Assembly (NCBI GenBank): GCA_030980935.1
Contig: GCA_030980935.1_3059.1
Reading direction: 5' to 3' (one strand)
DNA length: 64,000 nucleotides
Source of the DNA: a phage
Below the pieces are notes generated by a model that did no database searches, was not told the origin of the DNA, and saw nothing but the letters and a program-made list of their open reading frames with translations. Of the stretch, positions 33,077 to 34,506 are shown piece by piece. The first letter of the stretch is position 1; every line of letters starts with the position of its first letter. The position numbers were made by a program, and so were the translations under genes.

Positions 33077-33856
33077 TTAATTAAAAATATATACTTCATC
33101 AGTTCCATTCTTTTCTTTGGAATGATATATGTTAAAGACGTATTTTTTATTAAGATGCTTAACATTATATTTTTTAGACCATTCTTTAAGAAGAGTGTTT
33201 TCCTTTCCGTGATGCTCTAAAACATTCGACAGTCCAAATTTTATTCCTCTGTCATTTAAAGAATCTAAAAGATTTAAAAGGTCTTTTTCTTCTTCTTCTG
33301 ACCAAAATTTATTATAATCAGCAACTGTTATAAGATATGGAGGGTCCACATATACAAAATCGCCATCTAGAATTTTGACATCTTTAAAATGCAATGAACT
33401 AAAGATTATTTTATCACAATTTTGTTTAAAGTGATTAAAGCGTTTTTCACTATTTTTGTTTATAGTTCTTTTTCCAAACGGAGTAGTAAAATTTCCTTTA
33501 TCGTTTATACGAATCATATTACTAAATCCGTGAAAATGAAGAACATAAAGTAAAAGAGGATCTCTAGTTTTATTATAATCTTCACGTAATTTCAAAAACT
33601 CTTCTTTTGATGTTTTTGATAGTTTGTATTGCTTTATTACTTTTAAAACGTCATCCCATGATACATTAATAAGACGCTTATACATTTCAATAATTGGGGT
33701 TTGAATATCATTAGCCAATACAGGGCCATTGACGTTCAAAGACACTGATAAACCTCCACAAAATAAATCCACGAATCTGTCATATTTTGGAAAGTGAGGC
33801 TTAAGTTCAGGTAATAATGATTGTTTATTACCTGTATACGCGATAGCTCCTAGCAT
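33077..33856 (-). CDS. dam: DNA adenine methyltransferase Dam (GATC)
   Basis: 259 aa; DPPY catalytic motif and FxGxG SAM motif (LFCGGLS); recognised as T4 Dam. Confidence 0.9.
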
Positions 33857-34416
33857 TATATTCTCTCATTTATTGCAGCAAAAAATGAATTATACAATTC
33901 ATCATCATATGTATTTGATAATAATACTAACACGTTTTGTGATTTAGCATATTCATTAAACCTTGCTTGGATGGTTGGATTATCAGTAAATGATTCTCTT
34001 TTTGTCCATTTATTACGTGGATAATATCCGCATGGCAAAAAATCTAATATCATCAATGACACAGGGTTTTCAGTTTTTGTGTATTCTTTTAATTTCTCTT
34101 TATCTTCTAAATATATTCCAACCGAATCAATAGCTGTACCTCCACCAACTTGGTGTTTAATTTCAATTATATGCTTTTTACCGTTGCGAGAAATAACAAT
34201 ATCAAATCTTCTAGTACGCTTCTTAGTTATAAAATTAGAGCAAAACAAATTATTTGATTTTTCAGTATCATCAATTAAAACCATTTTTTCTTGATAACTA
34301 ACTGAACAATCAGTGAAATATTCTTTTACTTTATTAAGTATGAAATTTTCAACTACGGCAGATATTTTATATGAATCTCCGTTTAAAGCCATTTCATGCA
34401 CAATTTTATTAATCAT
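33856..34416 (-). CDS. Hypothetical protein with PD-(D/E)xK nuclease-like motif; not recalled in T4 at this position
   Basis: 186 aa; D72-x12-E85-I-K87 on alternating hydrophobic strands ([20 protein letters not shown]); own SD GAGGA and early-type promoter; stop overlaps dam ATG (TAATG). Confidence 0.6.
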
Positions 34417-34440
34417 TATATCATCCTCAGCAATTTATTT

Positions 34441-34476
34441 TATAATACCATAACAAGCTGAGAAAGTAAACAAATT
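34441..34476 (-). promoter_or_regulatory. Early-type promoter for the 186-aa nuclease-like gene
   Basis: Minus strand GTTTAC, 18-nt spacer, TATTATA; followed by SD GAGGA. Confidence 0.45.
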
Positions 34477-34506
34477 TATGATAAATATTAATTTAAAGGA
34501 GGACAT

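Follow-up and report, generated by a model that had tools for sequence, protein, structure and literature searches.

Does the Dam methyltransferase of the T-even phages work alone, or does it have a partner? Dam of T2 and T4 is the textbook solitary phage methyltransferase, which protects unglucosylated mutants from P1 restriction; that protection aside, no clear role in normal infection is known for it. The 64,000-nucleotide phage contig GCA_030980935.1_3059.1 (hereafter the window, meaning the whole stretch analyzed) is a Tequatrovirus genome segment, which over positions 33000–35000 shares 98.7% identity with Serratia phage PhiZZ30 and 98.3% with T2. Gene 56, dam, an open reading frame (ORF) for a 186-residue protein (ORF186), and gene 61 lie in this order on its minus strand. 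A preliminary description of this DNA, made from the letters alone, had correctly recognized an extra early gene in the interval between dam and gene 61, the length of which is 847 bp and not 848 bp as given there. Among the three options that it offered for the nuclease candidate and its methylase neighbor, a restriction-modification-like pair is the best supported, because the two genes are conserved together at three genomic sites and the nuclease gene never occurs without dam. Our favored explanation, which we hold at roughly even chances, is that ORF186 is the endonuclease half of a type II-like restriction-modification cassette, the other half of which is the phage Dam.

The physical association of the two genes is strict. 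Every ORF186 homologue with a readable context has a D12-class methylase gene directly downstream of it, in ten of ten lineages: the window, five metagenomic T4-like contigs (P0002, P0003, P0005, P0006, and P0009), two Klebsiella Jiaodavirus phages, and P0011 and P0013, the most distant members of the family. In these lineages, the stop codon of the nuclease gene and the start codon of the methylase gene overlap by 1, 7, 20, or approximately 35 nt, or the two genes abut. Three distinct neighborhoods harbor the pair: the interval between genes 56 and 61 in Tequatrovirus and its close relatives, that between denB and ndd in Jiaodavirus, and, in L011 (the metagenomic contig that is most distant), a site upstream of an rIIA-like gene. 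In L011, the pair is followed at 1574..3844 by a 756-residue ORF (called as 726 residues), the N-terminus of which resembles a GHKL-ATPase/rIIA-type protein, as identified by eye only. The partners also co-diverge: nuclease-like proteins with identities of 63, 56, 49, 42, 31, and 34% to the window protein are accompanied by methylases with identities of 71, 73, 64, 62, 57, and 54%, respectively, the nuclease-like protein changing faster than its partner. Since the pair moves and evolves together, ORF186 and dam appear to constitute a functional two-gene module rather than chance neighbors.

The distribution of the two genes among close relatives is asymmetric. We surveyed approximately 510 Tequatrovirus records sharing the flanks of the cassette. 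Approximately 183 of them carry dam, approximately 327 carry neither gene, and 147 carry the whole dam–ORF186 segment, the presence of dam in these 147 being read from coverage of the flanking dam stretch. ORF186 is thus sporadic (147 of approximately 510 records) and always together with dam. At a coverage of at least 80%, it is present in 155 phage records, including the 147 from Tequatrovirus; the Jiaodavirus and MX01-type contexts that were checked also carry a methylase, and no record in the phage collection was found to contain ORF186 without dam. Comparison of the 183 dam-containing records with those containing ORF186 leaves approximately 30 phage records that carry dam without an intact ORF186. 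In approximately 80% of the Dam-positive relatives, as in the window, the methylase is not solitary. RB32 represents the empty state, in which gene 56 is followed by a spacer of approximately 70 bp and then by a plus-strand ORF and gene 61.

The nuclease gene has been lost through at least three independent lesions. The T4 deletion, located between short TGAT repeats, takes the promoter and codons 1–158 of ORF186, leaving 33857..33939 (the last 28 codons) beside dam; the solitary state of T4 Dam is therefore secondary, the product of a deletion. No orthologous ORF with another function is present at the T4 dam–61 junction, which holds only this remnant of ORF186. The preliminary description had taken dam and gene 61 to be adjacent in T4, but they are actually 309 bp apart, with a spacer that contains the ORF186 remnant and a conserved plus-strand ORF. 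In KarlGJung (Bas37; L017 1410..1700), a separate deletion removed codons 1–121, including the catalytic core; the early promoter, which the T4 deletion eliminates, is kept here and stands with the ribosome site directly before a 61-residue remnant and dam. In laboratory T2 (L001, LC348380, 2371..2916), SV76, and phage 107, one base is missing from an A-run near the 3' end of ORF186 (window 33880). This −1 frameshift replaces the last residues, yielding a 181-residue product that ends in SFLLQ and a 13-nt gap before dam. PhiZZ30 and vB_EcoM_112, like the window, carry the intact 186-residue allele. The ORF186 remnant of T4 has the same A-run slip, and the T4-type deletion phages F1, Manna, and PD112 are without it. 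Two more records match ORF186 in two pieces, which suggests internal frameshifts. Loss of the nuclease with retention of the methylase, and never the reverse, is the pattern expected for a nuclease that is counteracted by the methylase. The same loss logic has been laid out for restriction-modification systems (PMC4176335).

ORF186 is a real gene under purifying selection and not a chance ORF. The ratio of nonsynonymous to synonymous substitution rates (dN/dS) against a 98%-identical relative is 0.07 (dS 0.097), compared with 0.10 for dam. The protein matches phrog_8706 ("unknown function") over its entire length, and homologues at 63, 59, 56, 49, 42, 33, and 31% identity retain both the length and the motifs, so that the 186-residue frame proposed in the preliminary description is genuine.

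That description had also ascribed to the protein a PD-(D/E)xK arrangement, with D72 in RRFDIVIS and E85-I-K87 in KHIIEIKH, and had suggested structure prediction as a check. The numbering is right, and an AlphaFold2 model built from the family alignment (predicted local distance difference test score 79.4, predicted template modeling score 0.78) returns a restriction-endonuclease-like fold. The model comprises a helix (residues 15–33), three strands (38–48, 66–77, and 80–88), a helix (95–113), and a strand (119–124), followed by two further helix/strand units, and thus contains the α-β-β-β-α-β core of the superfamily. D72 is located on the second strand, E85 and K87 on the third, and E23, a common fourth active-site residue in this fold, on the first core helix. 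E23, R69, D72, H82, E85, K87, H88, Q89, and the G-T-A-I-D-S loop (93–98) are invariant in all ten family sequences. The reported lack of GIY-YIG and HNH motifs holds, with no such Pfam match at E ≤ 1. On the basis of the predicted fold and the invariant D72/E85/K87 motif, ORF186 is assigned to the PD-(D/E)xK superfamily. Its product would cleave phosphodiester bonds in a metal-dependent manner.

The closest sequence family appears to be DpnII/MboI, whose members cut unmethylated GATC; the signal is reproducible, lies below threshold, and covers only the catalytic core. Pfam PF04556 (DpnII/MboI) is the top match of the window protein (15.7 bits, E 0.0099; gathering threshold 23 bits), and it matches four of eight family members, with a best E of 8.3e-5. 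The PADLOC DpnII-type model PDLC03548 matches the family at 1.3e-4 and 2.5e-4, compared with 8.5e-127 for R.DpnII, and a related 205-position PADLOC DpnII model matches one family member at E 0.004. The R.DpnII query is a confirmed full-length PF04556 member, identical to the database protein named DpnII. Alignment of the family with a DpnII alignment by hhalign gave an E of 3.8e-4 at a probability of only 36%, pairing E23, D72, and E85 with E152, D201, and E214, which are invariant in DpnII, and K87 with the invariant N216. With a custom DpnII hidden Markov model, the window protein scores 11.4 bits, a value reached by none of 5000 shuffled sequences (maximum 10.2). Residues 15–113 of ORF186 alone align, to DpnII profile positions of approximately 143–243. 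Since the match is below threshold, does not extend beyond the core, and weakens in the two remotest members, ORF186 was not assigned to the DpnII family. A resemblance to EcoRI in an ExKHQ string, seen by eye, was also dismissed, as hhalign of the family profile against the verified EcoRI fails to align the core. Neither the single protein nor the family profile yielded anything usable in searches of the PDB sequences (profile: no match at E ≤ 10).

The layout of the locus is summarized in the table below. The TAATG overlap between the ORF186 stop and the dam start, which the preliminary description had pointed out, can be read directly in the sequence, and dam translation is probably coupled to ORF186 through it. 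The early-type promoter and the GAGGA Shine-Dalgarno sequence ascribed to ORF186 are likewise present upstream of it on the minus strand, and the promoter has an extended −10 element, TGgTATTAT, at 34450..34442 (−). A generic sigma-70 scan found promoter-like sites no commoner here than in shuffled sequences (11 found, 14 expected), and the promoter call therefore rests on resemblance to T4 early promoters. The dam gene is 96–99% identical in nucleotide sequence to the annotated T2/T4 dam, and FxGxG and DPPY motifs are seen in its translation.

Table. Features of the dam–ORF186 locus in the window (positions of the 64,000-nucleotide stretch).
Feature	Coordinates	Strand	Basis or remark
Gene 56	32498..33016	−	
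dam, D12-class N6-adenine DNA methyltransferase (T2/T4 Dam, GATC), downstream partner of ORF186	33077..33856	−	Pfam PF02086 (MethyltransfD12) 7.9e-51
ORF186, gene for a 186-residue predicted PD-(D/E)xK (restriction-endonuclease-fold) protein; putative catalytic E23, D72, E85, K87	33856..34416	−	
Gene 61, primase	34704..35732	−	
TAATG stop/start overlap of ORF186 and dam	33854..33858	−	TAA 33858..33856 shares base 33856 with ATG 33856..33854
Early-type promoter of the ORF186–dam unit	34442..34471	−	GTTTAC 34471..34466, 18-nt spacer containing TG, TATTAT
Shine-Dalgarno GAGGA	34424..34428	−	7 nt ahead of the ORF186 ATG at 34416
Variable cassette (promoter, ORF186, dam)	33037..34495		Present in the window and T2, missing from RB32-type phages; ends to within approximately ±40 bp
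DNA missing from T4, 539 bp between short TGAT repeats	33940..34478		Pairwise alignment with T4 MT984581 (L002)

The GC content is 27.3% in ORF186 and 28.6% in dam, versus 36.6% in gene 56, 34.0% in gene 61, and 34.9% in the window. The AT-richness that had been noted by eye for the segment between dam and gene 61 is borne out for ORF186, but dam is just as AT-rich, so the property is not confined to that segment; the GC content of the entire cassette is 27.7%. The single spacer of RB32 (L003, 1441..1511) resembles both flanks of the cassette, 33037..33080 and 34456..34495, and because this resemblance lies in AT-rich sequence, the exact ends of the cassette cannot be fixed. The cassette may be bounded by imperfect direct repeats of approximately 30 bp, although these are very AT-rich and could have arisen by chance.

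These features can be combined into a model. A single early promoter would drive a bicistronic ORF186–dam mRNA from which ORF186 is translated first, and ribosomes ending at its TAA would restart at the overlapping dam ATG. The ORF186 product would be a small single-domain restriction-fold nuclease with a metal site formed by E23, D72, and E85-x-K87. We infer that it is specific for GATC and blocked by N6-methyladenine, most likely cutting double-stranded DNA at or near GATC-related sites that lack this modification, while the DNA of the phage itself would be shielded by Dam. Since the host chromosome is already Dam-methylated, the targets that we infer are unmethylated competitor DNA, plausibly including the approximately two-thirds of related phages without dam, or the DNA of Dam-lacking hosts. 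Phages such as T4 that lose the nuclease and keep dam would stay protected, which would explain many Dam "orphans". Two hallmarks of type II restriction-modification systems are found at the locus: the nuclease and the methylase are encoded by adjacent, separate genes, and the nuclease is not kept without the methylase.

Several observations weigh against this explanation. The E. coli chromosome is already Dam-methylated, and T-even DNA is glucosyl-hydroxymethylated. T4 DNA, with approximately 0.4% N6-methyladenine, is resistant to 94% of the type II enzymes sold commercially (PMC7653180). Accordingly, neither host nor self DNA is an obvious substrate. Laboratory T2 itself bears the C-terminal frameshift in ORF186. 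Moreover, T2 and T4 dam mutants are viable, and a classical restriction enzyme that kills by attacking self DNA would preclude this unless cytosine modification provides protection. All of the matches to DpnII fall under the curated thresholds, hhalign assigns a probability of only 36%, and no match is obtained for the two members most distant within the family. No bacterial family members were found in the cluster-representative, word-seeded, and plasmid searches described below, which leaves a classical bacterial restriction-modification system unsupported as the ancestor of the pair. The composition of the genomes is also of no help. GATC is the rarest of the 16 four-base palindromes relative to expectation in the window (71 observed, 203 expected, ratio 0.35), the next most depleted being TCGA (0.64); it is absent from ORF186, occurs once in dam (33559), and has ratios of 0.10–0.36 in short Klebsiella-phage and metagenomic loci. 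However, the depletion is equally strong in the dam-less RB32 (L015, 0.31). It therefore does not discriminate between the readings, and we rejected it as a footprint of the ORF186 nuclease.

Could the nuclease depend on the methyl mark instead of being blocked by it? An enzyme cutting fully methylated sites in the manner of DpnI, or hemimethylated sites in the manner of MutH, would attack host or foreign cytosine DNA marked by Dam, the phage being shielded by its glucosylated hydroxymethylcytosine. The strict linkage to dam is as compatible with a requirement for the mark as with inhibition by it, an abundant substrate would be available in the Dam-methylated host chromosome, and DpnI and MutH are also PD-(D/E)xK enzymes. 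The membership of DpnI in this class is described in PMC12707154. However, ORF186 is a single-domain protein, MutH is not among its structural neighbors, and the sequence signal points toward DpnII, which makes a methylation-directed nuclease rather improbable. A nuclease of DNA metabolism, serving recombination, repair, or host-DNA breakdown with a specificity unrelated to Dam and sharing the operon only by descent, would agree with the structural comparison: among the top structural neighbors are many nucleases of a non-specific or structure-specific kind (Can2, Card1, VC1899, Bax1, McrC, and the nuclease domain of AddAB), and T4-like phages have several dispensable nucleases. Simple synteny, however, predicts neither a pair that moved together among three contexts and co-diverges nor an asymmetric loss in which the nuclease disappears only where dam stays, and we regard such a metabolic role as unlikely.

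The patchy distribution and the low GC content of the cassette would also be compatible with a free-standing PD-(D/E)xK homing endonuclease that cleaves genomes lacking the cassette close to the 56/61 junction and, through recombinational repair, spreads itself along with dam as cargo. This is quite improbable, because a homing endonuclease has no need of a constant methylase partner, and ORF186 is never alone but keeps the same partner even at 31–42% identity and at three unrelated sites. Its strong purifying selection is unlike that of typical decaying homing genes, and it is without a DNA-binding extension of the Seg/Mob kind. We consider it most improbable that ORF186 encodes a non-catalytic protein of the nuclease fold, such as a DNA-binding regulator of dam expression or Dam activity: inactive PD-(D/E)xK domains exist, and ORF186 stands upstream in the operon like some restriction-modification control genes, but the invariance of four active-site residues over approximately 70% sequence divergence is unexpected for an inactivated fold. 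A more specific proposal, to which we give little weight, casts the pair as a weapon between phages, in which ORF186 attacks T-even relatives that co-infect the cell without a Dam of their own, cutting their glucosylated hydroxymethylcytosine DNA where GATC-type sites are unmethylated, and Dam marks self. It requires an enzyme that tolerates modified cytosine. The cassette would then spread as the cut genomes are repaired from the phage that bears it, phages with the methylase alone, such as T4, would count as immune "defectors", protected without being aggressors, and the cassette would contribute to the strong GATC depletion of T-even genomes.

The ORF186 family is tiny and was found only in T4-like phages in the searches made. 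An exhaustive search with the family profile, covering 1.84 billion cluster representatives, gave 12 matches. Two of these, P0016 and P0017, were set aside because they look spurious (long, with many weak repeated matches), and P0010 aligns over the last 30 residues only. Word-seeded searches of 5.8 billion clusters, even at E ≤ 10, detected no further members, IMG/VR contains two loci with the family, and a plasmid search returned none. No family in Pfam, NCBIfam, or PADLOC matches the protein above threshold, the NCBIfam matches being just noise. All of the database annotations consulted describe the protein as "hypothetical", and we found no description of the gene in the literature, although the 1988 T2 dam sequencing paper may contain an early mention of the upstream ORF. 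ORF186 is a small, so far unannotated phage-only family of a familiar nuclease fold.

Two further observations concern the neighboring genes. The plus-strand ORF noted above in RB32 and T4 lies at 34507..34707 (+) in the window, on the strand opposite to the neighboring early genes, and was overlooked in the preliminary description. It encodes a 66-residue hydrophobic protein (phrog_2024, function not annotated) and has a strong AAAGGAGG ribosome site, with a near-consensus late-promoter-like GATAAATA approximately 20 nt upstream; its stop codon and that of gene 61 overlap by 4 nt. The ORF occurs in the approximately 510 Tequatrovirus records, including T4, where it is unannotated in record MT984581, and it stays in place with or without the dam cassette. 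In the gene 61.2 region, two ORFs of 118 and 196 residues, at 35901..36257 (−) and 36259..36849 (−), end in the same C-terminal peptide, SIDDQIFNAFMN(R/K)G. This shared end, together with common "VKDN.I" strings, suggests that they are tandem paralogues.

These findings place Dam in a different setting. Most natural relatives with Dam encode it as the second gene in a conserved nuclease–methylase operon, of which T4, and partly laboratory T2, would be degraded versions. A survey of 831 phage genomes identified nine restriction-modification systems and 143 solitary methylases and concluded that solitary methylase genes rarely stem from complete systems that degraded recently (PMC4176335). If ORF186 and Dam indeed form a restriction-modification-like pair, T4 Dam would be a plain exception, with the scar of the deletion still to be seen. 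The cassette would then represent a rare restriction-modification-like module in a virulent phage and a clear in-situ case of a methylase that became solitary when its nuclease partner was deleted. The long-unexplained T-even Dam thereby gains a testable partner, and warfare between phages, if it is what the pair serves, would give Dam a function.

Among known systems, the type II systems that recognize GATC (DpnII/MboI) are the nearest counterparts. Like the ORF186–dam pair, they have a separate small nuclease gene beside a D12-class GATC adenine methylase, and asymmetric loss in these systems leaves solitary methylases. The nucleases have in common the PD-(D/E)xK fold, as predicted for ORF186, and a weak in-register match, below the Pfam threshold, over the E...D...ExK/N core. 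They differ in size, with 186 residues in ORF186 versus approximately 280–290 in DpnII, the N-terminal 140 residues of which are without a counterpart, and K87 of ORF186 stands where DpnII has an invariant N. The order of nuclease gene before methylase gene with an overlap and the restriction to virulent T4-like phages with modified cytosine also set the ORF186–dam pair apart. ORF186 is comparable in size to MunI, but the likeness to MunI, EcoRI, and other type IIP enzymes is structural only, and their recognition elements are not identifiable in ORF186. The chlorella viruses provide a precedent for a lytic virus with its own early-expressed nuclease–methylase pair, R.CviAI/M.CviAI (GATC), and their restriction enzymes degrade unmethylated host DNA. 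For the ORF186–dam pair, the enterobacterial host is already Dam-methylated, so that the target must differ. The free-standing T-even homing endonucleases Seg (GIY-YIG) and Mob (HNH) resemble ORF186 in being optional, AT-rich, intergenic, and patchy among close relatives, and the ORF186 region adjoins T4 segF. Unlike them, ORF186 belongs to another nuclease superfamily and is always accompanied by a methylase; purifying selection on it is strong, and its conservation extends across genera. Finally, the partner methylase in the window is the same enzyme (96–99% nucleotide identity) as the Dam of T4 and T2 that has been viewed as a solitary "orphan".

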